Positions 3,744 to 55,900 of a stretch of 64,000 nucleotides of DNA are shown one piece after another (the stretch's first letter is position 1; the number at the start of each line of letters is the position of its first letter). The DNA is from Eledone cirrhosa (taxonomy: Eukaryota), in assembly GCA_964016885.1 (NCBI GenBank), contig OZ024740.1, forward strand, positions 369,830,001-369,894,000. Reading direction: 5' to 3'. Made by a program: the position numbers and the translations under genes. The notes below the pieces were generated by a model, which had not been told where the DNA came from, made no database searches, and saw nothing but the letters and a program-made list of their open reading frames with translations.

Positions 3744-3943
3744 NNNNNNNNNNNNNNNNNNNNNNNNNNNNNNNNNNNNNNNNNNNNNNNNNNNNNNNNN
3801 NNNNNNNNNNNNNNNNNNNNNNNNNNNNNNNNNNNNNNNNNNNNNNNNNNNNNNNNNNNNNNNNNNNNNNNNNNNNNNNNNNNNNNNNNNNNNNNNNNNN
3901 NNNNNNNNNNNNNNNNNNNNNNNNNNNNNNNNNNNNNNNNNNN
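3744..3943. other. Assembly gap (200 N)
   Basis: Run of N. Confidence 1.
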
Positions 3944-4064
3944 AAATATAATGTATTTCGCAATACACTTCATGCTTAATTAAAAGCATTTTGAAGACCG
4001 TAAGCTATTGTTTTAAAGTAGTGACAAATTCACTCACTTCGATCTCAGCAAACAGGAGGAGATA

Positions 4065-4108
4065 AGCCGACATGACATGTTTCGCTTTTGTTGAAGCTTA
4101 TCAAGGCC
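4065..4108 (-). ncRNA. Type I hammerhead ribozyme, U3-A8 variant (minus-strand copy)
   Basis: Exact reverse complement of 4914-4957. Confidence 0.75.
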
Positions 4109-4913
4109 AACTACCCCGCCCGTCTGCTGAGATCAATGATGTTATATTCTTATAGAAATCTAGTAAATAATCAGGAGCTGATTATGCAGAGCGGTTGTTG
4201 GTCAGGCAGAAATTAAAAATTAGAATTGTAGCTCTGAAATAGCAATATATATATGGATGTAAATATAATGTATTTTGCAATACACTTTATGCTTAATTAA
4301 AAGCATTTTGAAGACCGTAAGCTATTGTTTTAAAGTAGTGACAAATTCACTCACTTCGATCTCAGCAAACAGGAGGAGATAAGCCGACATGACATGTTTC
4401 GCTTTTGTTGAAGCTTATCAAGCTTATCAAGCTTATCAAACAATAGCTTACGGTCTTCAAAATGCTTTTAATTAAGCAACTCTAAATTTTAATTTCTGCC
4501 TGACCAACAACCGCTCTGCATAATCAGCTCCTGATTATTTACTAGATTTCTATAAGAATATAACATCATTGATCTCAGCAGACGGGCGGGCTAGTTGGCC
4601 TTGATAAGCTTCAACAAAAGCGAAACATGTCATGTGGGCTTATCTCCTCCTGTTTGCTGAGATCGAAGTGAGTGAATTTGTCACTACTTTAAAACAATAG
4701 CTTACGGTCTTCAAAATGCTTTTAATTAAGCATAAAGTGTATTGCAAAATACATTATATTTACATCCATATATATATTGCTATTTCAGAGCTACAATTCT
4801 AATTTTTAATTTCTGCCTGACCAACAACCGCTCTGCATAATCAGCTCCTGATTATTTACTAGATTTCTATAAGAATATAACATCATTGATCTCAGCAGAC
4901 GGGCGGGGTAGTT

Positions 4914-4957
4914 GGCCTTGATAAGCTTCAACAAAAGCGAAACATGTCATGTCGGCT
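4914..4957 (+). ncRNA. Type I hammerhead ribozyme, U3-A8 core variant, GUC cleavage site
   Basis: GGCC-TTGATAA-GCTT caacaa AAGC-GAAA-CATGTCATG-TC-GGCT. Stem I extends ~25 bp further (GATCTCAGCA.../...TGCTGAGATC). Confidence 0.75.
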
Positions 4958-5139
4958 TATCTCCTCCTGTTTGCTGAGATCGAAGTGAGTGAATTTGTCA
5001 CTACTTTAAAACAATAGCTTACGGTCTTCAAAATGCTTTTAATTAAGCATAAAGTGTATTGCAAAATACATTATATTTACATCCATATATATATTGCTAT
5101 TTCAGAGCTACAATTCTAATTTTTATATATATATATATT

Positions 5140-5820
5140 AGTATTGGTGCTCTGAAATACCGATATATATATGAATGTATATATAGTGTATTTTGCAATA
5201 CACTGTATACTTAATTAAAAGCATTTCGAAGACCTTACGCTATTGTTTTAGAGTAGTGACAGTCTCACTTACTTTAAATTTTCAGCAAACAGGGGAGATA
5301 AAGTTGACAGAGCTCTGTTTTGTAATTTTTGGTACTTATCAAAGCTAACTACTCCACCTGTTTGTTGAAAATCAAATGTTTGATTCTTATAGAATTCTAG
5401 TAATAATCAGGAACTGATTATACAGAGCGGTTGCCGGTCAAGCAGAAATTGAAAATTAGAATTGATGCTCTGAAATAGCGATATATATATGAATGTATAT
5501 ATAGTGTTTGCTGAAAATGTAAAGTAAGTGAGACTGTCACTGCTCTAAAACAAAAGCGTAAGGTCTTCGAAGTGCTTTTAATTAAGTATACATTGTATTG
5601 CAAAATACACTATATATACATTCATATATATATCGCTATTTCAGAGCACCAATGCTAATTTTCAAACAGAGCTCTGTCAGCTTTATCTCCTCTGTTTGCT
5701 GAAAATTTAAAGTAAGTGAGACTGTCACTACTCTAAAACAATAGCGTAAGGTCTTCGAAATGCTTTAAATTAAGCATTCAGTGTATTGCAAAATACACTA
5801 TAGATACATTCATATATATA
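5140..5820. repeat. Diverged sister family of the 317-bp repeat, also inverted and rearranged
   Basis: Clear similarity to 3944-5124. Minus-strand HHR remnant at 5302-5346 (TTGATAA core, GAAA changed to AAAA, stem III ACAGAGCTCTGT). Confidence 0.75.
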
Positions 5821-6028
5821 TATACAAGAATGATACAGTTGCGAAAAAACCGGTTCAAGATTACACACCAGTTAATATTACATAGACGAACGTGTTCAAT
5901 ACCATTTGTAGTAATGTAGATGTAAAGAAGCAAGAAAAGTGGGATGACAAGTAATGAACTTACAGGAAGATGGTAAATACCGACTCTTAAGGCATATATA
6001 AATCGGTTTCGGGCCAACAAGAAATATA

Positions 6029-6394
6029 CATGATGGCTGCCCCCTCATTATCAAGTATGGCCAATTCCACGATATAACATTATTAATAATTATCAATTAA
6101 TGCTGTCATGCAATGCCTGTGCGTGAAGATTTTTTTAAAGGAAGGACTGCGCACTGAGCCAATCCCACTCTCTGAGCAACTGTAGCTATAACCCGAAAAG
6201 CAGAAAGGGTCAACATCATCGATAGCTATTGAGCCGCAGGTTTTATATCGGAGTTATTCCAGTTTACTGAGTTGCCTCCTCCTAGAAAAATGCCCTGACA
6301 AAGGCTAGGGGTCCTTCACTCCCAGTGGTTTAACCGCGCGATCTGGTTCCAGCCCGATTACTTCTATGTCCCCGGGCATATACATACACATGCA

Positions 6395-6478
<84 letters not shown>

Positions 6479-7662
6479 TATATGATGGCTGCCCCCTCGT
6501 TATAGAGTATGGCCATTGCCACGATATGCCAATATCAATACTTATTAATTAATTCTATCGTGGAATGTCTGTGTGTGAAGATTTTTATTTAAGTGAGAAA
6601 AGACTGTGCACTGAGCCAATTCCACTCTCTGAGCGACGGTCGATATAACCCGAACAGAAGAAAAGATCAACATCATCGGTAACTACTAAGCCGCAGGTAT
6701 TATATCGGAGTTATCCCAGTTTCGTGAGTTGCCTTCTAGAAGAATGCCCTGGCAAGGGCTAGGGGTCTTTCACTCCCAGTGGTTTAACCGCGCGATCGGG
6801 TGTCCAGCCCAACTATTTCTATGTCCCCGCGCATACACATACACATGCACCCATGCATACACACATATATATACATATGTACATGAGTATATACATATTT
6901 ACGCACTTTTGGATGGCCGTTGTCTTTTATGAGTTCTTCCTCCCTTCGTCGGGTTTTGTTTTTTGTCCCGCAGGGTGTCCCAAATCACACTCCTCACCAA
7001 GTAAACTTGGTGGGGTTGCCGGTTTACTCTCGGACGACCCGACCACCCGACCATGCGACAGGTTTTTACTGGGTTACATGTTACCAGTAGCACTCAAGAG
7101 TTACGCCTATACGTACATACATACTTACATACATGATGGCTGCGCCCTCGTTATCGAGTATGGTCATTGCACGATATACCATTATTAATAATTATTCATT
7201 CTATCGTGCAATGCCTGTGCGTGAATATGTTTTTAAAGTGAGGAAAGACCGTGTACTTAGCCAATCCCACTCTCTGAGCGACAGTAGCTATAACCCGAAA
7301 AGAAGAAAAGATCAACATCACCGGTAACTACTGAGCCGCAGGTTTTATATCGGAGTTATCCCAGTTTCCTCAGTTGCCTTCTCCTAGAAGAATGCCCTGA
7401 CAAAGGCTAGGGGTCCTTCATTCCCAGTGGTTTAGCCGCGCGGTGCATATGTATATACATATTTACACACTTTCGGATGGCCGTTGACTCATATGAATTC
7501 TTCCGCCCTTTGTCATGTTTTCTTTTTTGTCCTACTAGGTGTCCAATATCATCCCCGTCCGCAAGTAAACTTGGTGGGGTTGACGGTTTAATCACCGACA
7601 ACCCAACCATGCGACACGTTGTACTGGGTTACATGTTACCAGTAGCAGTCAAGAGTGACCCG
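6029..7662 (-). mobile_element. Cluster of two interleaved non-coding repeats (3 x ~350 bp, 2 x ~200 bp) separated by (TA)n/(CATA)n
   Basis: Copies at 6029-6380, 6483-6832, 7133-7443 and at 6903-7108, 7467-7662. The minus-strand CTAGCC...CTAGGAGAAGGCAACT motif is reminiscent of RTE-type LINE UTRs (tentative). Confidence 0.6.
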
Positions 7663-7689
7663 ACATACATACATACATGCACTTTCATT

Positions 7690-17625: not shown

Positions 17626-18415
17626 TACGAGGTACATTTGAGACCTTTTGATACTTTCTTTTCGGACTCCTTTAATTGACGTACGTAGCTGTCACTTTAA
17701 TAAATTCTTGACATGGTTATAATAAGCCAACATACCAAATCTTTCTTTTTTTTCAGCCTGAATGTTCTGGCCTCTAGAGTACTTTAAACACTAACCATCA
17801 TATACGTGTTGTGACAGGTGCCTGGTTCCACAATGCAGTCGGGACGTTAGGACAACTTGGAAACTTAATATGCAATAACGTTTTGTGTCAAGCTCGGCAA
17901 TAAGGCTGCAGAAACCTATGAAATAGTCAAAACTGGTTACGGACTATCTTTCATCAGCCGGATTACTGTTTTCCGCTGGCACAATATAAGTGCCAGGAGG
18001 GCAGGAAGCAGGTGCAGGTCTATGAGAGGTGTGGGGGACATCGGGACAGCAACGCCGGTCGATTTAATTCCCATATTTCTGCACGAAAAACCTCGTACAT
18101 CTATCCTGACGATTGCTAAACAATTTGAAATGGCGGAAGGCACTGTGCACAGAATAATTCATGATGATCTGAATATGCACAAAGTTTTTGCAAAATTTGT
18201 TCCCAGGGTAATCAATGAACATCAAAGGCAGAGCCACGTTGATAGCAGCAGCGAGATGTTCGAGTGGATCGCTTCAAATCCAGAGGTTCTTGAATAGCTG
18301 AAAACCTGTGACGGGAGTTTGGTCTACTATTATGATCCAGAGACGAAGAGAGAGAGGGAGTGCTATGTGGTAATATTCTGGCTCTCCAAAACCCAAGAAG
18401 ACCAGGCAAAGCAGA
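17626..18415 (+). mobile_element. Mariner (Tc1/mariner) transposon, 5' half, pseudogenised
   Basis: TA-CGAGG terminus. FCVKLG..AAETYE, HTH (TIAKQFEMAEGTVHRIIHDDL), KFVPR (WVPHEL-like) and TCD...YYYDPETK motifs, with stops and frameshifts. Confidence 0.9.
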
Positions 18416-23659: not shown

Positions 23660-24734
23660 CTGAGAGAGATAGGAGGGGGAGCGGTAGATAGATATAGTAT
23701 GTTAGTTTGTATAGCCTCCACCACACTTTACTACTGCAAACTCTTCCACTCCCTTTCATTCATTGTCTTAATATTTTGTTTTTGTTACTTCTATATGTTG
23801 ATACAAAACCCATTATCAGCTAATTTGGTGACAGTCATAATCGATCACTCGATTTAATAGCATCACCTGGACTTTCGTCTATTATAAAAGTACCAACTTT
23901 GCTAATTGTTTTTTTTTTCTTCTCAAATTATCCTTAAAAATTACGTTTCTAATGTACAGAATTGAAGACAGTATAGCCAAATATCAGCTGCATTGAGTTG
24001 CAAGCAAATCCTCTACTAATAGGATAAGTACAATAGCCAATACTGGAGCCAAAATAAAGGCTACAGAGACGATCTCCGAATGAAAGAATGTCAAATGCAG
24101 TTCGAAAATTGAACAACTACATCTGATGTACGTGATTTTCTGGCGAGAGATTTTCCACCAAGAAATAGGTAAGATACAAGTACTCACATCAGACGGGTCA
24201 CATCAGCACCAAATGCGGCTCATAAGCGCAGAGTAGCGCTTCAAATTCAACGGATGATAGTCACTATATACGGATATTTCATCTGTGGCTAGGAATGCAG
24301 ATCTAAGAACCGTTTGAGCGCATGGATGTATAGGCCTGAGGAAATCCAGAGAGGGCTCGATAAGGATAAATATATATCAAATATATAAGAACCCTAGAGC
24401 AAATATTTATTAAAATAACAGAGTGAGGTTTAAGCAAAAATCACTGCTTTCACCCTTAACGGGATCGTCTGAAATTAAAATAATTAATCTGTGAACGCAG
24501 AAGTAAATATTTCGAAAAAAGTTGCAACCGAAGGAAAACAGGAAGACGATACTTTGGTTCGTGAAGACGTTCCCTGGCAATCAACGGAAAAAAGCGAGGA
24601 TAATACGTCGTTATGTGGAGCGCTGAGAACAAATACACGCAAATACAAAACCACGTTTATGGTATAAATGAAGTTGTAGACTATTATTCTATTCAGGAAA
24701 CCGAATGCTTCTCAGCTTCAGAGTTAAGAATAAT

Positions 24735-24825
24735 TGTTTCTACATTTGGCACAAGGGCAGCAATTATCCGAGTGTATTACTGGTACTTTATTTTATCGAC
24801 CATGTAAGGATGAAACGCAAAGTTA
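24735..24825 (-). mobile_element. 5'-truncated SINE inserted in the left PLE arm
   Basis: Reverse complement of the 3' half of the 19762 SINE. TSD AAGAATAAT at 24726 and 24826. Absent from the right arm. Confidence 0.8.
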
Positions 24826-25611
24826 AAGAATAATATAAAAAAATTAGTAGAACAAAAATGACAGAGCTTATTAAAATCAATAATAATTAAATATATACAT
24901 ACACGCATCTATATACGTACATACACGTGCATACGCGAAAGCACCCGCCATGCATGCAGCTACATGCACCTACACATATACGCGCACACATACATAAACC
25001 CGCACGACACACGTACCCGCACACATACGTACGTATACACTAAATACACATAAAAAATATATATATGTGTGTGTGTATACATATAATTATATACACGTAT
25101 ATAAATATACACGCATAAATACGTATATAGCGCACGCACACACATACCAACAGATTTGTTGTTTAAGATGTGGTCATTGGTGTAGTGTTTCTTTCAGGGC
25201 TTCAGCGGCGCAAAGATCGCATCGTCTTTTATTTCCGTTATACGATCTAGCCTTAGCTAGGATCTCCCAGTGGAACCTATATTGGGTGTGGTTGTTTATT
25301 AGACTCCAGATATAAGCTGAAAGTGACGTCATATTCCTTCTTAAATGGTTAAGAAAAGAATGGGTGTACATGTAAAGACGCTGCTTTAATCTATTGGTGG
25401 TTAACCCTATGTAGGCTCTACGGGATCTATTTTCCTTGATCTATGATCATACGTAGTATATACTACCTTATCGACGAATCCATTCCAAGCAAGAGCTTCA
25501 TTGTAATATGGTCGGTGAAAATATGCTCGTCTGTAGATAGACGGGAAAGCACCAAGGAAACGTTTCTTACAGGGTTCTTGGTTATACTGGCAGGATGGTT
25601 AGAAGGCTTAC

Positions 25612-26487
25612 TTATGTAATTAAGCTTATCATTTGGTTTTCTATACGGGTAGTGCAAGCCATTCGACAAATTGTGGGTGACGTTGAGGTAATTAACGACC
25701 ACGAGGTTGGCCTCAACCTGTATGGAGAGGTTGAAGCATTTAAAAAAGCTGTGAGTTCTATTCTGAACCTGTCGCAGGCGTGTGGACGGCACTTTGTCAA
25801 AAGACCGTCATCGTGGTACAAACCACCGCCCACACTGGGGAATTCTTCCTTGATAGAGAAAAGAAGGAAAAAGCCGATAAGATATGTAACCTCCGCCGAA
25901 ACGCTGGCGCCCATACTCATGTCGAATGGGGTACTATCAGATTTTTTTATCGAAATCGAGTCGTCAAAATTAATCACCGACTTACAGGCATTGAGGATGA
26001 CATCAACTTCGAAATCCTTAACCACCGTGAGCGTTTTAGCGAAATTGATAGCTCTAAGAACAAGTGGTAAAGTGATGGAGGAGTAGTAGTTATTGATGTC
26101 GAATTGAATAAAACGGCAATGTTCCTTGTTGCATATGCGATTGAACCAATCAATCACCACGAAAGAATTATTCTGCAGTGCAATATTGGCCAAGCTTCTA
26201 ATTTCAGGTATAATTCTATGTAAAATCCTTTTACTAAGTTCACCTAAATCAGATTTCGTAGGGTTAATTAGCCGAATAGAAGGGTTGTTGGCGTAATTGA
26301 GTTTGTGCTCCTTCATGGTAAAGAGAAGAGAAATTGGGTCCAGAGGTTCAGTCCGGCCCTGGATGTTGAGTTCAGAAGTGATTTTAAACCCAGCATCGTT
26401 GATGTCATTAATGACACTCCGATTGGTTTTCCAGTAATCCTTAGTTCCACCATTATGTAGCAGTTGATGGTAAGTACTGCACCCCAC
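25612..26487 (-). pseudogene. PLE reverse transcriptase core, frameshifted
   Basis: 291-aa ORF with RT motifs FD..YYSSI, MG and YHDD. Confidence 0.9.
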
Positions 26488-27643
26488 TTGATATAGATTG
26501 CCAGTTTTTCGGAGTGTACATGCACGGCATTAGAATCGTTAATAGAACGAATTCTATTCCTCAGGTCCTGCTGGAAGGAATTGTTCCTATTTCGAAATTT
26601 GATACTCCGTATGAGTTCCAAGACATGGTTTTCGAAGGGTAGCAATGTGGGAGGGTTATTATAAATTTTAAACCCACATTGATTCTTTTTATTGTCCGCT
26701 TTTTCCTGGTTATCGAAATAAAAGGCACGCCACACGCAACCTTTTTAAGGAACGAATCCGTTTTCTGTATCAGACCTTTGAGGTACGTCTTCCTGTTAGG
26801 TACGGTTATGATTTTTGTTAAAATATTCAGATGTTGTTTCTGCATGATGAATATAAGTCAATAGAGTGCTCAGTGTATATATTATATTATAGATACTGGT
26901 ATATGTGTATATTGTGTGGGTGTGTGTATGCGTGTATGCGTGTTTGCAAGTATGTAAGGCATGTATATATGTACATCGTGTTTCGCTTGACGCACCTTTG
27001 GTGAACATATGTGTATTTACCTGTAGGTATGTGTGTGCGTGCGCTATATACGTATTTATGCGTGTATACTTCTATAGGTTTATATAATTATATATATATT
27101 TTTTGTATTTGGTGTATACGTTCGTATGTGTGCGGGTACGTGTGTCGCGCGGGTTTATGTATGTGCGCACATTTTTATGTGTAAGTGCATGTATATGCAT
27201 GCATGGCGGGTGTTTTCGCGTATGCACGTGTATGTACGTATATAGATGCGTGTATGTATATATTTAATTATTATTGATTTTAATAACCTCTGTCATTTTT
27301 ATTCTACTAATTTATTTACATTATTCTTAACTCTAAAGCCGAGAATCATTCAGTTTCCTGAATAGAATAATAGTCTACGACTTCATTTATACCATAAACG
27401 TGGTCTTGTCTTCGTGTATTTGTTCTCATGGACCAACACTACGACGTATTATCTTCGCTTTTTTCCGTTGATTGCCAGGGAACGTCTTCACGAACCAAAG
27501 TATCGTCTTCCTGTTTTCCTTCGGTTGCAACGTTTTTCGAAATATTTACTTCTGCGTTCACAGATTGATTTTTTATAGTTTCAAAAGATCCCGTTAAGAG
27601 TGAAAGCATCGATTCTCTGCTTAAACATTAATCTGTTATTTTA

Positions 27644-27713
<70 letters not shown>

Positions 27714-28865: not shown

Positions 28866-31442
28866 GGAAGCAGAAAATTGCTTATTGTGATCCAGTTCTT
28901 GGTTAAGAAAGCCAGTTTCATGGATTTTTTCAACGTACTGTTAGGTGGTAACTCCACAAGTTTGTAAGAATTCCGTTCAATCTTGGAGTATAAAGTATAA
29001 AAGAGAAAACACAGGTAACCATTAAGAGAAGGATTTTATCCAGGTATTTACGACCGTTTCATTGGTAAGTGCAACCTTATATTGCTATACTGCAAATAGC
29101 AGCCACTCAATTATAATTGTTGTTCATAGTCCAAATTTTCAAAATAGTGAGTAGGTTACTCTGGAAATAATTCTTAATATATAGAGAAAAACATTTATTT
29201 GGAATTGTATTTACTAGTATAGAGAGAGAGAAACCAGAAGGTGAGGGGACAAACGGAATAGTATAGAGAGAGAGAGGAAGGGGGGAAAGTTATGAAGTAG
29301 AGTGACAAACTGAGATAGAGGGAGGGGTAGAGGTGGAAGGATCCCTTGATCAGTTTTGATAGCAGACTTCATGTCGTGGAATGTAGTGAATTAAAGAGAA
29401 TTAAATTGATCATAGTGGGAGAGATGGATAAAGAGAGAGAGAGAGGGGGGAGATATAAAGAGATAAATATATATATAAAACATAAAATTAAAGATAATAA
29501 TGACAAACATAAAAGCAAAGAAGAGGGGAAAAGAAGTAAAGAAAAGATACCCAAGAAGGGGAGGGAAGGAAGGAAGAAAACGAAGAAATAGAAGAGGAAT
29601 GAAGGAGAAGGGGGGATATAGGTATTGGTTTTTGTGGGTAATTAAAAGGGTTTAGATACAACAAGAGGGTATAAAGCCTAAGAATATACAGTTTGTCAGT
29701 TGGTAGTAAGAGGTTAAGGGTTCGATTTGCACTTGTAGTGCGAACACTTCTCTTTGAGTCTATGGTTACAATAAATTGATCTTTCGGTTTTATTGTTGAG
29801 TAACTTTTCCTTCGAACTCAAGATGTGGAACAGATCAAGGTCGCATAATCGACAGCTTCTCATACAACTCCGATATGGGGGCGCGTTCGATAATGTTTTC
29901 CACTTCAGGGTGTATTGATGGTTACTTTCCCTCAGTTGCCAGGTCTTGTTTGCAAGGGTAGTTACATAACGATGCTGGGAATGTTTCATTGCGTAACGGT
30001 GTGTATACCAACGGGCTTTAAATGTATTCCCAGTCGCTCCGATGTAATACCATTTCTGGTTGTCTGATTCCACTGTGCATTGGTAAACCAGGTTAGGCTG
30101 CATACATTCATTATGTAATGGACAGGTTTCAGGTAGGTGACAGTTACAATTCTTGTCATGGGCAACTTTGGCATTATTGGTGGGCTGCGATGCCTGTACA
30201 AGTGTGTTACGTTTTGTTTACCTAATAGCGGGTGGTTGTGTATTAGATATTCTGTTGTGTTCGATGGTGATTGTATTGTTATTGTTGTAAATTTGTGTTT
30301 TGGTGTTGTTATGTATCTTTTTAGCGTTAAGAATCTTAATGTGTGCCTCTATATTTGGTGCCGTGGAGTAAGATAGTCTAATAGATTTAGTGTTAAGGAT
30401 TTTGCTGTATCTATGTGAATCTGGAAAGTGCTTATTTATTATTCTAAAGAAGGTAGAGGGTAGGTTAGTACTAATAGAGGTGTTAAATATGGGGTTATAC
30501 CAAATATATTTTCTACTGCGTGATTTGTTTGATTTCACGTTGTATTTCTATTTACCGTATACTTTGTAGTTCTATGCGTAAGTGCGTGTGTGCGTGTGTT
30601 TCCGGAGTTTGTGTTATGCGTGTTCGTGTGCGCTTTACGGAGGCTTTCATCTATATATTCTACTCTATCTAAGTGGCCTGCCTTGTCTAATGCGGTATTG
30701 TAGTATTCTGCATGTTCTTCGAAAATTTGTCGGTTAGACGAGAGGCGGGAGATCCTAAGGGATATGCTGCGTGGAATGAATTTAATTATTGATAGTTGGT
30801 GGTTTGAGTTACAGTTGATTTATGCTAAGTTTTCATTAATCTTGTGAAAAGGTCTTATAAGTCCCATATTTAGGTTAATCGTCGCGTCTAGAAAGTTAAC
30901 TGTTTTAGTGCTATACTCATACGTTATGCTAAGGCCTAGTTTCCCGAGAGTCTTTCTAATATTCTTACGGAGTCTTTCTATGCTCTGGTTATTTAGGTTC
31001 TTAACTAGGAGAAGGGCGTCGTCTCTGTAGATTCCACCATGAAGGTCGCTAAACTCACTTTGTAAACTATAGGCTATGTAAATACCTATCAAAACTGATC
31101 AAGGAATCCTTCCACCTCTACCCCTCTCTCCATCTCAGTTTGTCACTCTACTTCCTAACTCTTCCCCCTTCCTCTCTCTCTATACTATTCAGTTTGTACC
31201 CTCACCTTCTGATTCCTCTCTCTCTATACTAGTAAATACAATTCCAAATAAATGTTTTTCTCTATATATTAAGAATTATTTCAAGAGTAACCTACTCACT
31301 ATTTTGAAAATTTGGACTGTGAATATCAATTATAATTGAGTGGCTGCTATTTTCAGTATAACAATATAAGGTTTCACTTACCAATGAAACGGTTGTAAAT
31401 ATCTGGATAAAATCCTTCTCTTAATGCTTACATGTGGTTTCT

Positions 31443-31447
<5 letters not shown>
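28860..31447 (-). mobile_element. 5'-truncated Naiad-type Penelope-like element with inverted pseudo-LTR
   Basis: GGIYRDD, VNFLDAT, RKYIWYNP, CNC...CPL...C, YQC...YYIGATGNTFKARW...H, CRLC...LLN...CNH. Arms ~29001-29362 and 31086-31447 are inverted. Confidence 0.93.
29714..30103 (-). pseudogene. GIY-YIG endonuclease domain of the PLE
   Basis: LVYQC...YYIGAT...KARW..H. Confidence 0.88.
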
Positions 31448-31485
<38 letters not shown>

Positions 31486-32512: not shown

Positions 32513-34177
32513 CTCATTTCCTGTCATTTCAAGCGTTAAAGTAATATATTTCTTCAAACTACTGTATCGTTTACTTTGTTATATCTGTTTACTGTTTTTT
32601 AGGGGTTGGTTTGTATGTGTGTGGTTGTGTGCGTGTGTGCGGGTGTGTATGTGTGTGTGTGTCTTTGTGTATGTATGTGTCTATGTCTGTCTATCTGTCT
32701 TTCTGTCTGTCTGTAAGTGTGTGTGTGTGCATGCCAGTATGGAATCTGTATTTATGTATGGATTATCAAGTCCTGTCACTTTGCATATAAATAATCTAAT
32801 GACATGAAAAATTGGGGGATGAATAAAGGACTAAAATACAAAAATATGATTGATATTGCAAAGTTACAATGTATGCATAATGCGAGTTAGCAATTTAAAA
32901 TATATAAAATTATACATAATGATATGTTATAATAAAATATTAAATATTAAGTTGAATCCGGATTTCTCACAAAACCGTGGGTAATTTCAATATAATATGA
33001 GTGAAATATTTAGATCTTATTCAAAGTCAAAATACATTGAATTCATTTTCCATCAGAAATTAAGACAAATGTTCTAATTCAAATACATAGCGTATATATT
33101 TACAGAGAAAATAATGTCTTCATATTGAGTAATATGTGTGAGAATGGACGTAAAGAACTAACATACATTAACGTATTATGTTTTCCTTTAATCTATTTAG
33201 CCTTTTAATAAATGCATTGTTTATATTTACATATAGTTGAACTTTCTGCATTGAAACAAGAATAACATATTTATTTATGAATTTCTTTTACTGCTTGGCT
33301 AATATTTATATTTTCCACAATTTGAAAACAATATATCTCTGCTTATTGCATTAATTTAAACAAAATTTCATAAGCAAGAAAATATTATTACTTCTTAATC
33401 TCGGTATAATTGTGTCAAATGCTGTCATAAAGGATATAGGTGAAAGTTGAATCACATTATTCTGGTCTTCTGCATGAATCTGGTGTAGGAGGGCTCTTGG
33501 GAATGTTATAATTAGTGCACAGGAAAAACCTAATTAGCAGAAAAGCCAAGAGCTACACCACACCTCTTTACTCATATAGAAGACTAGATACATATCTCCT
33601 TGATCAAGGATGCAACACATCCGCCAGAGTATATGACACACAAGTCAGCTCGATTCAACCGAACCAACAGCGGGATGCCGAGACCTATGTGAACATGTCG
33701 CAGCGTCTTTGCTTAAATATGAAACGATTTTTAGGTACCCAAACAGCTTCTGCCACGAAAGTTACAAGTCTCGTGGGAACGTTAAGAAAAGCAGTCCGCA
33801 GTTCTTTATTGCATGCGGAAGATTAATCTTGTAGAAATGAGAAAAACTAGTTACTCATACTGACATTATGTTGCTCTTCGTTACAAACCATTGATTTTGG
33901 GCGTTTGGTATATAATCGTTACAAACAGGGAAGAGGACTAATATTGGAAATACTCAATAAATGAATTTCAAGGCGCAAGTCATTTCAAATATGAGGACGT
34001 TAGACCCAGGCCTGGATCGTATCTTTTGCCACCAGAAGTGATTTCCATTTGAACGGTTCCAATATATCAGATGTCGTCGTCTGCAATCGACCATATTAAA
34101 TTTTAATTTTTTTAAACATATTATATGACACTTCTTTAAAATCTGGTTTTCTTAATTTTATATATATATATATATTA

Positions 34178-34726
34178 GTATGTATACGTACATACATATA
34201 TGTATACAGACGTAAAGTAGTATGTATATATATATATCTATATATATATATACATGCACACATATATATATGTACGTATGGATTCACCAAACATTTATTA
34301 TAATGCTCGGTGTGTTTGTAAAGAAACATCCCGAATTAAGCCGTACAGTGTCTAGCAACCGTCGTTGCTCATTTGTTCAACACTGACAAAGGAACGCTGT
34401 ACTAGTTTCAAGCTTATTAGCTATCGTCAGCAACGTATACCTTCCTGCCAGATGGTTGAACGTCTGAAAGTATATACTTTCCTTATGCATATTAACGGCT
34501 GAGCAGCTTAATTTGCATATCGACTGAGTTAATCGGCCAGGGTACCGAAAATGATAAACGGAAAAAATGTGTACATATACGTACGTATATATATATGTGT
34601 GCATGTATGTATATATATATACATACTACTGTGCGTCCGTATACATATATGTATGTACGTATAAATACTTATATTTAAGTAACGGCCGTACTAACAGTGG
34701 GAAATGAAATTTCGTTTCATTTTTTC
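34178..34726. mobile_element. Dispersed inverted copy of the 420-bp HHR repeat
   Basis: Minus arm ~34178-34565 with an intact HHR at 34394-34436. Plus arm ~34590-34726. Confidence 0.85.
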
Positions 34727-34948
34727 TATATATATATTAAGAAATATTATCATTGTACGATTTACTGATTAACTGATATTTCTTCTTACAATGACGGAAC
34801 AATACATTTTTTCTCAAACTTTTAAAAACATTTCGGAAAAGCACCATTTGTTTCAATTTAATTTGATTTGATTATATACTTGTCAGGATATTTGATTCAG
34901 GTATATTCATGTTTGTAAAAAATGCAAAATCTAAAAAAAAATACTTAC

Positions 34949-41329: not shown

Positions 41330-42240
41330 AAAAAAGATGAAATCGAAAATGAGTTTTTTTTTACCTAAAAAAAAGTGGCTCAAAATGTTTTTTATAAATG
41401 TAATTTGATTGGTTATAAATGAAATTATGACTGTCACGCGAACAAATCAATTAAATTTCGCATCCAAATTTGGGAATATTTTTGTAATCATTTTAAAGAA
41501 TTTTGTGCCACACACACACACACACAGCACACCAGTCATACTCACTGAACCAGAACACTTCTCGTCATTCCTTTTTTCTTGACCATTATCTTTTGTTTGG
41601 TACAAAATTCACTAATTGGTTACAAAAAAATTCCCAAATACGAGCGCGAAATTTAATGTACTTGTTTACGTGACAGTCATAATTTCATTTATAACCAAGC
41701 AAATTATATTTATAAAAAAACATTTTGAGCCACTTTTTTAAGTAAAAAGAAACTCAAACACAAACTGGCGCGAATGTTGATGTGCTTATGCATGTGACTG
41801 CATTAACCAACCAAATTTCACTCATATATTAAAAAAAACAATCTGAGCCCCCGCCTCTTTTTTTAAGGCAAATAATAAGAACTTTTAATGCGAACTGGCG
41901 CGAAATTTATTATATTTATTCACATATCCACATGACAGTCATCAACCAACCAAATTACGTTTCTAAAAACCTAGCATTTCGAGCCACTTTTTTCTATATA
42001 AAAAAGAAGTAATATTGGAACACCACCAGATGCGAGAAAAACCACAAACCCTCTCAATTCTACTTTTGAAAAGCACAAGAACTGCGAAACCGGTAAAGGA
42101 ACCAAATACATATTCTTAAAAAGACTTTAGTTGCAATTTCGATTTCATCTTTTTTCCTCATACTTTCAGTCGTGTAGGACACCTCGTTTTTTTTTTCATT
42201 TTGTAAAAAAAACCTCATTTTCTAATATATATATATATAT
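41325..42240 (+). mobile_element. Non-coding PLE-type element with 5' inversion, ~125-bp subrepeats and a hammerhead
   Basis: 41345-41490 is inverted relative to 41615-41757. Subrepeats near 41640, 41765 and 41890. (TA)n on both flanks. Confidence 0.7.
42058..42101 (+). ncRNA. Minimal type I hammerhead, U3-A8 variant
   Basis: TTC-ta-CTT-TTGAAAA-GCA caagaac TGC-GAAA-CCGG-TA-AAG-GAA. Palindromic stem III ACCGGT. Confidence 0.65.
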
Positions 42241-43648: not shown

Positions 43649-43770
<122 letters not shown>

Positions 43771-43778
43771 TATATATA

Positions 43779-44263
<485 letters not shown>

Positions 44264-44629: not shown

Positions 44630-47533
44630 ATGATAACAATTAACAGTGCTTTGATGGAATGTGGCTCTTTAGCCCAGCCAATGATCTTAAATATCTTGCA
44701 CAGAGTTGGCAACCAACTGCAGCCTGGTAGTCAACCACTGATCTCACTTTATGACTGCACAGATGTTGCATGTCAGCGTCATGGAAGATCTTCGCTGTCT
44801 GGAAACGAAACAGCAATGCCCTTCTTTACACTTCTCTTTACTTTCTCGTCTGCGATTCGTGATGCCTCAAAGGCAACTGTCACCTCATATACAGTCTTTC
44901 TCTATTTATTATAATCAGCAGCAACATTTTTCCATGTATCAGCAGAGTAGTTAGCGTCTTTCAAAGAGGCTTTCAATGAATCCTTATACCTCTTTTTTGG
45001 TTTATGTGGAGGTCGTTTTCTTTAACTAACTATCCATAAAACAGTTGTTTTGGTATTCTAGAATCCTTCATCCTGGCGAGGTGAGCACTCCAACGGAGTC
45101 TTTGCTTAAGTACAAGAGCTTCTATACTGTCACACAGAGAGCTTTCCAAAATCTCGACATCACTGATGTGCTCCCTACAGTGAACGCCATAGATCAGTCT
45201 GAGACACATCTGATGGAAACGCTCCAATTGTTTAAGGTGGTGTCGATATGTGACCCAGGTCTCGCAGGCATAAAGAAGAGAATACAGCACACCTGCCTTG
45301 TACACATTTACCTTTGTCTTCTTGCATTTGTCTCGCCGACCCCAGAGGCGCCTTTCTAGCTTTCCAAAATCATCAGTTGCTTTCCTAATCCTGAGTGGAA
45401 TTTCATTATCAAGGTTGCTGTATCGATTGACTTTGCTTGGTAGACAAACGGATTAACCACTACAAGTCGTTTACCATACACATAGATATTTGGCTCACTG
45501 TACTTCTTACCAGGGGCAGGTTGGTACATGACGACGGTTTTCTTGAGACTGACAGTCAATCCTAAGGCAGTGCAAGCATCAGAAAATGTATTCACAATCT
45601 GTTGCATATCACTCTCTGTGTGACCTACAAGATCGCAATAACCTGCATACAAGAGGTTTTGTTTTTGCAGCAAAACGCCTGATGTTAAATATGCTGTCTG
45701 AGGTTCTATATTGGATGTAAAACCATGCTCGCAATTCCTGAATGCAATATAGAAAACCATTGCAAATTATATGACAAACAGGGTTGGTGGTGTTACACTC
45801 CATTGTTTACTGAGATAGGCTCCAACATGTTACTGCTGACATTAACCCAAGCCTTCATGTAGTCATGGAAAAACCTAACCAAAACGGGGAACTTATCAGG
45901 ACAACCAAGGTTCTGGAGAACACTCCATAATGCATTTCTGTTAACAGTATTGAAAGCTTTTGTCAGATCTACAAAAACCTTATACAGATCCAAACCTTGT
46001 TCCATGCACTTCTGGAGTGTCTAGCTGAGAAGATCATATCAGTAGTGCCGCGTCCAGCACAAAAACGAGATTGATTTTCAGGAAGAACACAATCAGCAAC
46101 GTGCGTCAGCAGGCGGTCCATAATCTCCCCACATAAAATGTTTTCCTATGACAGAAAGCAATGATATACCTCTGTAGTTTCCACAGTCATTCCTGTTCCC
46201 ATTCCTGTTCCCCATGTACAAGACCACCATTACTGCATCTCCCAGGTCCTCAGGTACGGATTCATTAGCCCATATCCTGCCAAACAAAGAGTGAAGATGT
46301 TGCAGAAGTCTCTCACCACCATATTGTAAGAGGTCTGCATGTATGCCATCCATACCTGGAGACCTTCCACTGTTAAGCTTCGAGATAGCTACTGCAACCT
46401 CCACAAGCGTGGGTGGGTCTGTGAGAGCTACTTTCACAGCTTTTTCACAAATGAGATTGAGGAAATCTTCATTGATGACAGAAAGCTGATTCAAACGTTC
46501 ATCAAAGTACCACCTTCACAGAATTCCTTTTGAGTCACGAAGAAGTTCCCTGCCATCCTTACTGCGAAGCGGTGTTACTAGAGAAGAAGACGTTCCATAA
46601 ACTTCACACAAGAGACTGTACAACTGCTTTGTGTTATTGGAATTTGATGCAGCCTTCTTACTCCATCACTTATCCTTCATCTGAGAAAGACTCCGCCTCA
46701 TACGTGATTTCCCATCCTTGAATTCCTTCAGCAACATATTCTTCTCCTGTGGTTTTGCTGCCAAGTAGCGTGACAGAGCACGCCTCTTATCAGCCAACAA
46801 GTCTTCTATATGCTCATCATTTTCATTAAACCTGTCTTGATGTTTTCTCTGCACCAATCCCAGAACACGCCTGCCTATATCATAAGCCGACTTTTAAGTG
46901 CCGGTCAATCCTCACCAAGATCTGCAACATGCATCTCTTCTCGCAATGTCCTCCTCACATTTTTTTCTCTAAGACGAGCAGCATTAAATCTCCTAGGCAG
47001 AGTAACACCAGAAGCCCGGATTTTACGTTTAGTGATTAGTTTCACTTTTGCGCGAACCAGGCGGTGGTCCGTCCAGCACTCAGCTCCATGAAGAGCACGA
47101 ATACACTGAACATCCCGTCACACATCCTGACAAGGACATATTCCAAAATATGCCATTCATTAGATGCAGGATGCTGGATGCATCCATGTGGTGTTAAATT
47201 TGTTGGAACATGGTCTTGGTAACATACAGATCCAGGTCCTCACACATCTGCAGCAGGAGCATACCGTTGTTGTTACAGTTTCCCACCCCATGCCTTCCGA
47301 TTATATTACATGTGTTAAAACCCCTACCCACTCTAGTATTAAAGTCACTAAGCACGATGACCTTGTATGCCTGAGGGATATTTCTTAAAACACCTTTCAA
47401 GGTATGGTGGAAAGACACTTTTTCTTCCTCGACAGAATTCATAGTTGGGGCATACACACTCACCACGGTCGCATATCTTCCTTTGTCCAGCTGAATTCTC
47501 ATAGACATAAGACGTTCACTAATCCCCACTTGG
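44630..47533 (-). mobile_element. RTE-clade LINE, 5'-truncated pseudogene (APE endonuclease + RT)
   Basis: ERLMSMR..VSVYAPT..DFNTRVG, TDHRLV, SPGMDGI, NYRGISLLS, FVDLTKAF, YACETW, RLRWSAHLARM..RIPKQLFYG. Many frameshifts. Confidence 0.95.
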
Positions 47534-50342: not shown

Positions 50343-52985
50343 AGAGAGTGAGAAAGCGAGTGAGAGAGAGAAGAGAGAAAGATAGGTGAACACTGCTTTA
50401 TAGAGATGCATGTTTCTAGAAGAATGATTATAGGACGAAATCAATCTTGAAATATTCTCTTGGCTATATCAGAGTACATTTATTATACAAATAATGATAA
50501 CACTTCATTAAATATTGAATATGACTTATATGTGCCTTTTGGCAAGTATCTTTGTCGGTTGATTAAAATACATTTACTTACTTCTATATCTACATAAATC
50601 AAAAAAATATTACAGTAGTTATGAAATATATTACATTTTTGGCATTAGACTCTTGAATTATTCGCCATTTTGCTAAAAAAGTGTATCTTTCATTCAATAA
50701 ATTATGACATTGTTATTTACAGTCTAACGTTAATGTCTGATTTCATGTAATACCGCATCGTTAGCAAACGTATATTTTTTCTTAATGGTTCGTTTCTCAA
50801 GGAAACGTTTGTGAACATGGCTTTCGCAGATTTTCCCTAAAACGTTAGGTGGATGGGGATGACATTCTTCGGGAGCAATCGCAATTCGTTGACTGCAGGA
50901 AAACATCGTTAGAGTTGGGCTCATCGCGAAGAGGATGATAATATACCGTGCTAGCGAGAAATGATTACGTATCGTGACTAGTTCAATACTACGAAGGGAA
51001 AGTCATTACTGAGGAGTGATCAATAAGTTGGTTGCTCTGTGACTAACCAAACCCAAGTTACATTGTAGATGTTTATAAAAGCAGAGATACTAATATATTC
51101 CTGGCTATAACAATGATATCGTGTGCAGGAAAAGGTACTGTTCAGAACTATACTCTATGTGACCGTCGTTACGTAGTCGTCCTAACTCTAAAAGGTAGCA
51201 GGTAATTTCCCTAAACTCCTTAGTTGTGTCATTTCACAGGAGAGGTCACTTGTACAATGTAGGTTCCGTTAGACAAAATAAGAGTAAGAATATTTTTTAT
51301 CATAACAATTTTGAGCAACATGGATTTAGTAGTAATCTAAATCAACACCAACAACATTCGCCTAATAAAACTAGGCATTTTTATTTCGTTTAAATTGCTG
51401 AATTAAACTTTCCTAGTAAGCTAGAGTAAAATAGTAGTTCTGTCTTAGAAAAAATAAGCTGAGGAAAATGCAAGTTAAAAAGTAAAAGAAACAGAAAAAC
51501 GACCTCTCAGAAAGAAACAGAAAGCGAATGTATCGCCTAATGAAATTGACATGTAGAAATTATTTCTGAAACTATTTATTATACCTTCACAAGGAGAAAT
51601 ATGAATATTTCCAATACAGCAATTAGAAATACCGAATGCAACGATCTTTCATGAATATGCGTACTCCTACAGACAGACACACAAAGCATACACACGACCC
51701 CACATATGCACCTATAAACGGACCCGTTTAATAGAATTGACAAGCGTGGGAGCGCGGCAATATATGTTAACTCTAGTAGGATACTACACAACACTCATTT
51801 TCGTAATCCATGTTCAGCATTTCACCCTCGTAATTGGAAAGATCTTGTGCGACTGCTTGTGATTTATGCAGCACTGAAGCGCATAGAAATTATAGAAGAT
51901 GAACCCAATTTAATCAATAAGCGCTCAACGAATGCAGACGTAAAATATGTTTTTAAATGTTCTCTGATTAATTTCTAGCTTTTAAATCACCCCCTCCACA
52001 TCAACATACACATCAACCACATATTGCACCCCTTCTTATCCTAGTACGTTGATATCTATGTGGAGTAGCGTACGTAATCTATCCAGTAGAGTGATGGGTT
52101 CTTCTATCTCCGTCAGCTAGTTCCTTTATAATCTGCTTACACGAAGTTACTATATTTGACAGCTACTATCCTTCAACCTTACATCTTAGGGCTCTGAATA
52201 TCCGACGCCCTTGCACCTAAAGTTCCATCTTCAACTTCACTTATTTTTCTCTCTTTTTTCTACCCTCGTATGTGGAAGTCCATATATAGTTGAATATGTG
52301 TGGTCGGGTGCGTATAGGTCGTGTGCCTGTCTGTGTATGTGCGCATATGTGTGATCGTTCGTTCATAAGTACCTGCATGTATGTGGATATAGTATTACCA
52401 GATGATCATGTATCACGTTTGCATGTATCACGTTTGCAACATGAGCTCTTTATATTAAGATTTAGCTCCCGCACAAACTAACAGCCATATATGCGCCTTT
52501 TAATTTAAGCGCACATCTTCGCTAAGGATAAACTGATCTAGGGATAAACTGATCTTCGCCAACCGCCGAGGGTTAACTGAAGAAAGCAAACTGATTTTTA
52601 AAATAAATAAATAAATTTGTAAGAATTAATTGAATTATAACCAGTTTAAGAGCCAGGTGAATGACCAAATATTAAACAACTTGACTCCTTTAGTGCACTG
52701 ACATAGTTTCACCTCCTACCACCACCGAAGCAGCTCCCATTCATCTACCTCTGCCTTGCCAGCGCCAACGTTCACATACGTTATGTCTGCCCGAACACGA
52801 AATGGCAATATCATTTCGCCGACAGGCAAATCATAAACCAAAAATAATAACATAACTATCCACATCGAATTGGGTAAATATCTTATAATGACAATTTGAT
52901 GCATTTGAAACGTACATACCAGGTGTAATGTAATAATGCTGAAATTGAATATGCAAAACACTTTTTCTTCTTTTTCTTTATATAT

Positions 52986-55900
52986 GTTTCATTTTTTCCA
53001 TTTATCGTTTTCGGTGCACCCGGCCGATCAACCCACTCGATAGGCAAATTGGGCTACTCATCCATTAATATGCATAAGGAAGTATATACGTTCAACAATC
53101 TGGCAGGAAGGTATACGTTGCTGACGATAGCTAACAAGCTTGAAACTAGTACAGCGTTCCTTTGTCAGTGTTGAACAAACGAGCAACCGTGGTTGCTAGA
53201 CACTACGGCTTAATACGGGATGTTTGTTTACAAACACACCGAGCATTATAATAAATGTTCGGTGAATCCATACGTGCCGTATATATATATGCGTGCATGT
53301 ATATGTATATATACATACTACTGTACGTCTGTATACATATATGTATGTACGTCTACATACTTATATTTAAATAACAGCCGTACTAAGAGTGGGAAATGAA
53401 GTATCGTTTCATTTTTTCCGTTTAGCGCTTTCGGTGCACCCGGCCGATCAACCCACTCGATATGCAAATTGGGCTACTCAGCCGTTAATATGCATAAGGT
53501 AAGTATATACGTTCAACAATCTGGCAGGAAGGTATACGTTGCTGACGATATCTAACAAGCTTGAAACTAGTACAGCGTTCCTTTGTCAGTGTTGAACAAA
53601 CGAGCAACGGTGGTTGCTAGACGCTACGGCTTAATACGGAATGTTTGTTTACAAAAACACCGAGCATTAAAATAAATGTTCGGTGAATCCATACGTGCAT
53701 TTATATATGTGTGCATGTATGTATATATACATACTACTGTACGTCTGTATACATATATGTATGTACGTCTACATACTTATGTTTAAGTAACAGCTGTACT
53801 AAGAGTGGGAAATGAAATATCGTTTCATTTTTTCCGTTTAGCGCATTCGGTGCACCCGACCGATCAACCCACTCGATATGCAAATTGGGCTAATCAGCCG
53901 TTAATATGCATAAGGTAAGTATATACGTTCAACAATCTGGCAGGAAGGTATACGTTGCTGACGATAGCTAATAAGCTTGAAACTAGTACAGCGTTGCTTT
54001 GTCAGTGTTGAACAAACGAGCAACGGTGGTTGTTAGAAGACTACGGCTTAATAAGGGAATTTTGTTTACAAAGACACCGAGCTTTATAAGAAATGTTCGT
54101 TGAATCCATACGTGCATTTATATATGTGTGCATGTATGTATATATATATACATACCACTGTAGTCTGTATACATATATGTATGTTACGTGTACATACTTA
54201 TATTTAAGTAACAGCCGTACTAAGAGTGGGAAATGAAATACTGTTTCATTTTTTCCGTTTATCGTTTTCGGTGCACCCGGCCGATCAACCCACTTGATAT
54301 GCAAATTGGGCTACTCAGCCGTTAATATGCATAGGGTCAGTATATACGTTCAACAATCTGGCAGGAAGGTATACGTTGCTGACGATAGCTAACAAGCTTG
54401 AAACTAGTGCAGCGTTCCTTTGTCAGTGTTGAACAAACGAGCAACGGTGGTTGCTAGACACTACGGCTTAATACAGGATGTTTGTTTACAAACACACCGA
54501 GCATTATAATAAATGCTCTGTGAATCCTTACGTGCATATACATATGCGTGCATGTATATATATATATATATACTACTGTACGTCTGTATACATATATGTA
54601 TGTACGTGTACATACTTATATTTAAGTAACAGCTGTACTAAGAGTGGGAAACGAATTAGTGTTTCATTTTTTCCGTTTATCGTTTTCGGTGCACTCGGCC
54701 GATCAACCCACTCGATATGCAAATTGGGCTACTCAGACGTTAATATGCATAAGGTAAGTATATACGTTCAACAATCTGGCAGCAAGGTATACGTTGCTGA
54801 CGATAGCTAATAAGCTTGAAACTAGTACAGCGTTGCTTTGTCAGTGTGGAACAAACGAGCAACGGTGGTTGCTAGAAGACTACGGCTTAATAAGGGATGC
54901 TTGTTTACAAACACACCGAGCATTATAATAAATGTTCGGTGAATCCATAAGTGCATATATGTATATATGTGTGCATGTATGTATATATATATACATACTA
55001 CTGTACCTTTGTATACATATATGTATGTACGTGTACATACTTATATTTAAGTAACAGCCGTACTAAGAGTGGGAAATAAAATATCGTTTCATTTTTTCCG
55101 TTTATCGTTTTCGGTGCACCCGGCCAATCAACCCACTCGATAAGCAAATTGGGCTACTCAGCCGTTAATATGCATAGGGTCAGTATATACGTTCAACAAT
55201 CTGGCAGGAAGGTATACGTTGCTGACGATAGCTAACAAGCTTGAAACTAGTACAGCGTTCCTTTGTCAGTGTTGAACAAACGAGCAACCATGGTTGCTAG
55301 ACACTACGGCTTAATACGGGATGTTTGTTTACAAACACACCGAGCATTATAATAAATGTTCGGTGAATCCATACGTGCGGTATATATATATGCGTGCATG
55401 TATATATATATATACATACTATTGTGCGTCTGTATACATATATGTATGTACGTGTACATACTTATATTTAAATAACAGCCGTACTAAGAGTGGGAAATGA
55501 ACTATCGTTTCATTTTTTCCGTTTATCGTTTTCGGTGCACCCAGCCGATACACCCACTCGATATGCAAATTGGGCTACTCAGCCGTTAATATACATGAGG
55601 TAAGTATATACGTTCAACAATCTGGCAGGAAGGTATACGTTGCTGACGATAGCTAACAAGCTTGAAACTAGTACGGCGTTGCTTTGTCAGTGTTGAACAA
55701 ACGAGCAACGGTGGTTGCTAGACACTACGGCTTAATACGGGATGTTTGTTTACAAACACACCGAGCATTATAATAAATGTTTGGTGAATCCATACGTGCA
55801 TATATATATGCGTGCATGTATGTATATATATATATATATATACATACTACTGTACGTTTGTATACATATATGTATGTACGAGTACATACTTATATTTAAG

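Follow-up and report, generated by a model that had tools for sequence, protein, structure and literature searches.

A 317-bp tandem repeat in the genome of Eledone cirrhosa is, with a probability that we put at roughly 0.7, a non-LTR retrozyme mobilised by a Penelope-like enzyme, in which the pair U3-A8 has replaced C3-G8 in the hammerhead core and for which RNA circles are the likely template. The hammerhead motif, the covariation of its stems, a ladder of subfamilies, the paired switch in the core, the geometry of the inserted arms, their 3' and 5' ends and their (TA)n targets were observed directly and carry the argument.

The window, that is the whole 64,000-nt stretch of DNA analysed (contig OZ024740.1, positions 369,830,001 to 369,894,000, forward strand), contains the core TTGATAA at 4601 and 4918 on the plus strand and at 4104 and 4421 on the minus strand. 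An earlier reading made from the letters alone (the sequence-only reading) had described four hammerhead copies in a 317-bp repeat, at 4065(-) intact, 4382(-) truncated, 4597(+) with GUG in place of GUC and 4914(+) intact. All four were recovered, these coordinates being the edges of the motifs, and repeat analysis of the window returned the same period of 317. It had overlooked that the four copies are the two inverted arms of a single insertion; the minus and plus copies form an inverted repeat of 479 nt (99%). No ORF of at least 120 aa lies inside the unit. The features of the locus are as follows.

3744-3943: assembly gap of 200 N, which interrupts the left arm 16 nt ahead of its usual short 3' end
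3944-4228, minus strand: left arm covering unit positions 1-285; its hammerhead is intact (core 4104-4098, C17 at 4069)
4229-4422, minus strand: left arm, 5'-truncated unit (positions 124-317), with hammerhead core 4421-4415 and the 5' strand of stem I absent
4420-4478: arm junction, with two extra copies of a core-spanning 9-mer (4420-4439) and a 41-nt plus-strand fragment of the unit (4438-4478)
4477-4793, plus strand: right arm, full unit; besides G17 at 4636 and, in stem I, G>C at 4591 it has two more differences
4794-5110, plus strand: right arm, full 317-bp unit, 35% GC, with many 100%-identical copies on other contigs
4886-4982, plus strand: type I hammerhead, with stem I 4886-4917 and 4954-4982, core U3-A9 4918-4924, stem II 4925-4938, GAAA 4939-4942, stem III 4942-4952 and C17 4953
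5085-5094, plus strand: internal (AT)5 tract, where insertions across the genome have their short 3' end; putative first reverse-transcription start site
5095-5125, plus strand: tail, the 25-31 nt extension up to the long 3' end, putative second start site
5125-5138: (TA)n target remnant, common to the insertion and an older neighbouring insertion
5132-5826: older two-armed insertion of the same lineage, ~82% identical, with a U3-A8 core at 5342 on the minus strand and GAAA changed to AAAA

In the 4597 copy the change of GUC to GUG was confirmed as G17 at 4636, and the G>C at 4591 and two more differences had escaped the sequence-only reading; the truncated 4382 copy indeed lacks the 5' strand of stem I. 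The 9-mer across the core of the latter copy is triplicated (4411-4439), and the junction at 4420-4478 presumably consists of slippage and template-switch products. The older U3-A8 relative at 5132-5826, which adjoins the insertion and was absent from the earlier account, is likely inactive, judging from the change of GAAA to AAAA. That the repeat adjoins an assembly gap was also correct. The left arm being 16 nt short, the gap may hold only the usual arm end before (TA)n; arms of up to 13 units occur elsewhere in the family, and a longer array in the gap is conceivable. None of the contigs from six sequencing runs that contain the stretch ran across 3744-3943. Because the upstream ribozyme is damaged in each arm, by G17 in one and by the missing stem I strand in the other, the window locus is probably a dead-end copy, unless the gap holds more units.

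Around the TTGATAA core the other parts of a hammerhead were in place as first described: stem II GCTT/AAGC, GAAA, a 4-bp stem III and GUC. A stem I of ~30 bp had been proposed; the long extended stem stands, but in a constrained fold it amounts to 26 bp in three segments (18+4+4). The core has a Watson-Crick 3-8 pair, U4 G5 A6, A9, GAAA and an NUH site, and N17 was C in 95/96 family copies. Where a loop 1-loop 2 tertiary contact would be expected, loop 2 was CAANNA-like in the aligned copies and an internal loop in stem I was conserved, an arrangement that may resemble the Schistosoma motif. G17 variants of tertiary-stabilised hammerheads stay active, 8- to 100-fold slower (PMC3884650), and by analogy the GUG copy need not be dead. 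The Rfam model Hammerhead_HH9 matched both intact copies with E 2.4e-5 (31.1 bits, under the model cut-off of 52), and Rfam in gathering mode gave no match in the whole 64,000-nt window. The supposed invisibility of the family to standard searches therefore has to be divided: a CUGANGA pattern overlooks a UUGAUAA core by definition, but the Rfam miss is not specific to U3-A8, since C3-G8 loci searched at E<=0.05 gave a hammerhead match in 0/2. Rfam miRNA matches at the locus were rejected as inverted-repeat artefacts.

A genome-wide search for the U3-A8 core, which the sequence-only reading had proposed, gave 3,376 exact matches in family context in the 3.0-Gb genome and 0 with the reversed pattern. 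Given these counts and the Hammerhead_HH9 E-value the motif is not a chance occurrence. The same pattern with another base at position 3 gave 26 matches, and at position 8 it gave 24. With the unit as query there were 789 first-look candidates, and 40 scored regions yielded 202 matches, nearly all of them 98-100% identical and spread over many contigs; the older neighbouring copy (5132-5826) yielded 3,194 first-look candidates. The family is dispersed and recently amplified.

For comparison among copies we took 60 regions of the 61 clusters among the first 100 matches listed, the remaining cluster being already in the set (L042), and obtained 96 parsable hammerheads in 56 loci. Covariation was assessed with one copy per locus, from 53 loci and the window copy (52 distinct copies); three loci in which a junction broke the 5' stem were left out, and pairs fixed by the search pattern carry no covariation information. 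In the 52 distinct copies 96.6% of stem cells were paired, as against 90.5 +/- 0.4% when shuffled and 34-49% in slid controls, and 117 cells carried double changes as against 39 in shuffles, relatedness of the copies inflating both cell measures. Seven pairs had double changes, a number that 157/500 shuffles also reached, which counts against a covariation signal. The double changes sit in stem I (2.1-1.1 and distal pairs), in 3/4 stem II pairs and in the outer stem III pair, and the most recent subfamily step altered both sides of one stem III pair. GAAA, GUC and G10.1-C11.1 were kept over ~22% divergence. Judged from these alignments, the three helices are supported by covariation.

A scan of the sampled loci revealed a sister subfamily with the core CTGAGGA, i.e. 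C3-G8, ~76% identical and with the same stems. A relaxed pattern found 85 matches to it genome-wide, so that the U3-A8 branch outnumbers it ~40 to 1. Mismatched cores were few (12 U3-G8 and 17 C3-A8, 4 of the latter derived from the C3-G8 subfamily); they occurred as singles scattered over the subfamilies, which fits decay after insertion, and were never amplified. In a tree of 64 near-full units (47 U3-A8, 17 C3-G8; overlapping or duplicated loci left out) the subfamilies were arranged as a ladder whose youngest tip was the window copy, and there was a single 3-8 change with support 100/100. The rooting depends on a long branch, and the trees were built from alignments that included the three core columns. 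Mean divergence within subfamilies was 6.9% for C3-G8, the most internally diverged, and then 5.6, 5.4, 5.7, 3.5, 3.3, 2.8 and down to 1.8-1.9%, falling as identity to the window copy rose. Two further, more distant C3-G8 relatives root outside the U3-A8 clade. The main U3-A8 branch was most likely derived from C3-G8, as far as the tree can tell, with module exchange between families a further possibility.

The same core arose outside this branch as well. Family D (~72% identical to the unit) has TTGATAA in 21/23 copies and, in a tree with 20 family D rows, one of which is a main-family copy from a flank, branches outside the C3-G8 rows, so that 2 changes are needed; a single origin of U3-A8 was rejected on this ground. 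Its copies (L213:579-1024; L215-L244), for which there were 2,125 first-look candidates, have different stems, with a C/A mismatch or an insertion at the base of stem II. Since 3,376 U3-A8 and 85 C3-G8 cores face only scattered mismatched singles, we infer that positions 3 and 8 changed jointly, and did so on at least two occasions in the wider lineage. Independent variation of positions 3 and 8 was one of two outcomes that the sequence-only reading had set against its proposal; at the subfamily level the two change together. Constancy from copy to copy is uninformative here, because among the first 100 U3-A8 matches listed the free position N7 was as uniform as 3 and 8 (99/100). A remote relative at L179:2083-2934 (~62%) has a canonical CTGATGA core, a minimal palindromic helix III and inverted as well as tandem copies.

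That U3-A8 is a rare substitute, as had been stated, does not hold in this genome, where 3,376 and 12,512 pattern matches were found. The pair has also been published for natural hammerheads. It was described in 2011 as a natural covariation of C3-G8, such cores being already active in vitro (PMC3088659), and ~1,300 Schistosoma motifs in Penelope-like elements (PLEs) were reported with it in 2014 (PMC4209133). The 12,512 matches belong to an unrelated element of ~200 bp, found in the window at 42039-42225 on the plus strand, with a TTGAAAA hammerhead-like motif (core at 42065), a palindromic ACCGGT helix III and ends of TTCTAAT and (TA)n like those of the 317-bp family; its matches often lie in inverted pairs, and U3-A8 was present in 100/100 of those listed.

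In 48/64 clusters from the 60 regions two inverted arms were found with their 3' ends outward, and TA repeats lay within 45 nt of 90/112 3' ends as against 3/16 5' ends. We mapped the ends of 288 arms in 149 loci with subfamily-matched references. The 3' ends of 251/288 arms fell into two peaks ~25-30 nt apart: counted downstream from the cleavage site, 130 arms end at 135-149 nt and 121 arms at 165-179 nt. The 5' ends were spread, with 2/288 within 4 nt of the cleavage site where 8.2 were expected; an initial pile-up of 5' ends near that site was an alignment-start artefact that disappeared with the subfamily-matched references. In 20 young arrays and the window, 14/19 two-armed insertions had one short and one tailed end, the other five being cut or aberrant (3), tail/tail (1) or short/short (1). 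Arms comprised 1-13 units.

This geometry matches, by analogy, the signature of PLE insertions and the two-start-site mechanism of their enzyme. PLE insertions are described as 5'-truncated, with partial tandems and an inverted copy that is likewise truncated at its 5' end; one end bears a tail of 30-40 bp, and the targets are (TA)n (PMC8557442). A PLE protein was shown to cleave the two strands of AT-rich DNA and to initiate reverse transcription at two internal positions, the distance between which is the tail (PMC11167929). The 317-bp repeat has the inverted 5'-truncated copy, the tail at one end and the (TA)n or AT-rich target of a non-autonomous PLE; its tail of 25-31 nt is slightly under the published length, and its short end coincides with an internal (AT)5 tract, which might base-pair with the target; in the anole element, by contrast, the start site has no such homology (PMC11167929). 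An RT and GIY-YIG ORF, as in an autonomous PLE, is lacking in the unit.

The insertion signature of RTE-related short retroposons reportedly involves TA repeats, and the window contains RT fragments at 45030-46515 on the minus strand that we take to be LINE-like. These fragments, the signature of their own that such retroposons have (PMC6007223) and the failure to find a PLE partner in the loci examined would suit a retrozyme mobilised by a LINE, e.g. of the RTE clade, instead of a PLE. We regard this as highly improbable, since two fixed 3' ends, one per inverted arm, are a PLE feature unseen in non-LTR target-primed insertion as treated in PMC8557442, and since inverted arms and (TA)n ends are likewise found in PLE-like insertions of this genome.

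The arms might also be a satellite that spread at the DNA level, or palindromes that arose in assembly or from reads folding back; the hammerhead would then be a vestige. The locus does adjoin a gap, duplication patterns occur in some arrays, and one tail/tail array has mirror-image flanks (L252; L147-L148, G000:C4 ~358.176-358.179 Mb), with a 1,215-nt inverted match inside PLE-like RT sequence; this array is either an inverted duplication or an assembly artefact. Against such an origin speak the fixed 3' and random 5' ends, the asymmetry of the arms, the differences between the two arms of old insertions, the dispersal over many contigs and the strand-asymmetric folding together with the stem covariation, and we consider it very unlikely.

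PLE-like elements are present in this genome, and two such insertions lie in the window.

24403-27651: PLE-like insertion with an RT fragment, inverted arms and (TA)n ends
28996-31450: PLE-like insertion with a C-terminal GIY-YIG and Cys-rich linker, inverted arms and (TA)n ends

RT-like and GIY-YIG-like ORFs lie between the inverted arms of these insertions, the RT assignment being a putative one based on motifs. At E<0.02 none of six window ORFs had a Pfam match; a flank ORF 62% identical to that of 28996-31450 had GIY-YIG at E 4e-4, just under the cut-off, as was the case in 2/3 flank ORFs. By PMC8557442 the GIY-YIG and Cys-rich linker of 28996-31450 would be Neptune/Nematis-like. The family of 24403-27651 has two end classes ~90 nt apart, as against 25-30 in the 317-bp repeat, and we found no sequence common to it and the 317-bp unit; it was ruled out as the autonomous partner on both counts. 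No autonomous PLE with the sequence or the 3' end of the unit was found in the loci examined, ends being mapped for one PLE family. Retrozyme arms directly joined to PLE-like coding DNA were seen at L046 ~1949 (L149 ~4123) and L003/L004 ~815, the L046 junction being head-to-head, so that it looks like an insertion with one retrozyme arm and one PLE arm. As evidence on the partner the L046 and L003 junctions are anecdotes, because such elements are abundant and have targets in common with the repeat.

Further repeats were present in the window. A tandem array of ~424 bp units at 52982-60318 on the plus strand, with relatives at 34165-34747 and 43682-44259, has the canonical core CTGACGA, a stem II of AGCT/AGCT and, as a minimal helix III, ACTAGT; it is probably the "first" retrozyme family implied when the 317-bp repeat was called a second one, and the latter is indeed retrozyme-like and distinct from it. 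At least six more C3-G8 hammerhead families were noted in the flanks (L035, L042, L044, L056, L089, L091 and others; 25 distinct motifs), and the genome is very rich in hammerhead repeats. A degraded mariner-like transposase N-terminus with weak HTH matches lies at 17869-18297 on the plus strand, and three to four diverged repeats of ~450-650 bp ending in TA/CA tracts (D8, D13, D16-D20) at 6024-7688.

What the enzyme copied can be approached from the variants within arrays. Among 138 unit pieces there were 99 distinct variants, 82 of them singletons. A248G was present in 9/9 spanning units in both arms of its locus, T247G in 4/4, and G95A was all-or-none in 8/21 loci. Locus-private variants that fill all spanning units are expected from repeated copying of one monomer circle, and a homogeneous linear multimer would give the same pattern. 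In L246 the variant pattern recurs every three units, and in L248 and L249 variants occupy some of the units or one arm; these patterns count against a pure circle, because a single monomer circle does not explain them. The avoidance of the cleavage site by the 5' ends fits a circular or an uncleaved template. Folded as a circle, the sense monomer reached -78.1 kcal/mol as against -53.6 +/- 4.6 in 100 shuffles (z -5.3), and the antisense monomer had z -1.6. None of the data sets containing the stretch was listed as RNA. A 347-nt contig (317+30) from one run and a 383-nt contig from another, going back 317, were dismissed as evidence for circles, as a tandem DNA array fits them alike and the depth was <3.

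According to the preferred reading, tandem copies would be transcribed, the transcripts would cleave themselves after C17, and the monomers would be ligated into 317-nt circles. A Penelope-like reverse transcriptase-endonuclease would then cut both strands of a (TA)n target and, for each strand, begin reverse transcription at a separate internal site, the two sites lying ~25-30 nt from each other; copying would run round the template and give arms of 1-13 units joined at truncated 5' ends.

The predicted folds complicate this cycle. In the predicted minimum-energy fold, in a model that leaves tertiary contacts outside, the core pairs with the stem III strand and C17 is sequestered, 5.3 kcal/mol below the hammerhead fold. 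The predicted gap between hammerhead and inactive fold was 0.5 kcal/mol in 12/17 C3-G8 copies versus 1.1-10.6 in 47/47 U3-A8 copies, and among the latter it was ~3 in old and 5-7 kcal/mol in young subfamilies. Pairing of helix III between copies was predicted at -10.5 kcal/mol, which would allow a dimeric ribozyme. In Xenopus 8/9 predicted retrozymes failed to cleave (bioRxiv 10.64898/2026.07.22.740005), and the anole PLE ribozyme needed protein for cleavage and was dispensable for insertion in vitro (PMC11167929). The modelled inactive fold and these two comparisons would count against a cycle driven by self-cleavage.

A PLE could instead have mobilised an uncleaved linear tandem transcript with a weak or protein-dependent U3-A8 ribozyme, the arrays growing further by local duplication and no circle being needed. 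The greater predicted stability of the inactive fold in 47/47 U3-A8 copies, the three-unit periodicity in L246, the 5' ends that suit uncleaved RNA equally well and the normal insertion of anole PLE ribozyme mutants, whose cleavage needs protein (PMC11167929), would all agree with this. We nevertheless consider it unlikely: compensatory changes in stems I, II and III go on into the youngest subfamilies, GAAA, GUC and G10.1-C11.1 were kept, mismatched 3-8 cores never amplified, and locus-private variants occupy all units of both arms. Returning to copying from circles, a more speculative extension, which we hold only tentatively, is that the core swap is a switch and not neutral. As modelled, the change from CUGAGGA to UUGAUAA would pair the core with the cleavage-site strand, so that the circle would fold its ribozyme off and survive for repeated copying by the PLE enzyme from the two start sites.

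Several parts of this picture have precedents. Animal retrozymes, their circles and PLEs as candidate mobiliser were described in 2020 (PMC7229834), and a mobilising enzyme with circles as template has been proposed there and in bioRxiv 10.64898/2026.07.22.740005. The 317-bp repeat shares with metazoan non-LTR retrozymes (coral, mussel, axolotl; PMC7229834) one type I hammerhead in each tandem non-coding unit of 150-450 bp, GC <50%, dispersed recent insertions with thousands of copies, a proposed circular RNA and a PLE as strong candidate. It differs in its U3-A8 core and in a predicted monomer fold that would block the ribozyme, which is said to be accessible in most metazoan circles; insertions with two inverted arms and a tail are absent from the description of metazoan retrozymes in the available parts of PMC7229834. 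Compared with the Cercyon PLEs of Schistosoma mansoni (PMC4209133), the core covariation, the animal genome, the PLE link and the fact that the first descriptor missed the motif are the same. The Cercyon motifs are minimal, heterogeneous and mostly single, whereas the 317-bp repeat has a 4-bp covarying helix III, where PLE hammerheads have it absent or minimal, a 26-bp helix I and tandem non-coding units; unlike them it is young, with copies 99-100% identical, and a sister subfamily with C3-G8 persists beside it.

Perreault et al. 2011 (PMC3088659) give several isolated U3-A8 examples, and here a whole amplifying lineage appears to carry a datable switch. With PLEs and their non-autonomous partners (PMC8557442; PMC11167929; bioRxiv 10.64898/2026.07.22.740005) the repeat has in common the 5' truncation, partial tandems, inverted copy, one-end tail, (TA)n or AT-rich target and hammerhead; it differs from PLEs in having no ORF, in its tail of 25-31 nt and in that no homology to an autonomous pLTR was found. 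Li 2026 argues from co-occurrence and pLTR homology, and the word "tail" is absent from its main text (bioRxiv 10.64898/2026.07.22.740005). A literature search found no retrozyme lineage in which U3-A8 stands beside a C3-G8 sister, and no case in which the PLE tail served as evidence for retrozymes, within a scope in which hammerhead catalogues in supplements or subscription papers could hold the family. We concluded that the core variant alone is ordinary, and that what is new is the dated natural compensatory switch and the insertion-level evidence on retrozyme mobilisation.

In this family the natural ribozymes from before and after a compensatory change in the catalytic core of the hammerhead are available as a matched set, and its two mapped start sites, target preference and near-identical young copies make it a substrate for an in vitro test. 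With at least 15,888 U3-A8 pattern matches in one genome (3,376 and 12,512), CUGANGA surveys undercount hammerheads. If the core acts as a switch, this would account for the ~40 to 1 excess of U3-A8 over its C3-G8 sister, and the insertions would be a footprint that testifies to the mobilisation of animal retrozyme circles by PLE enzymes.
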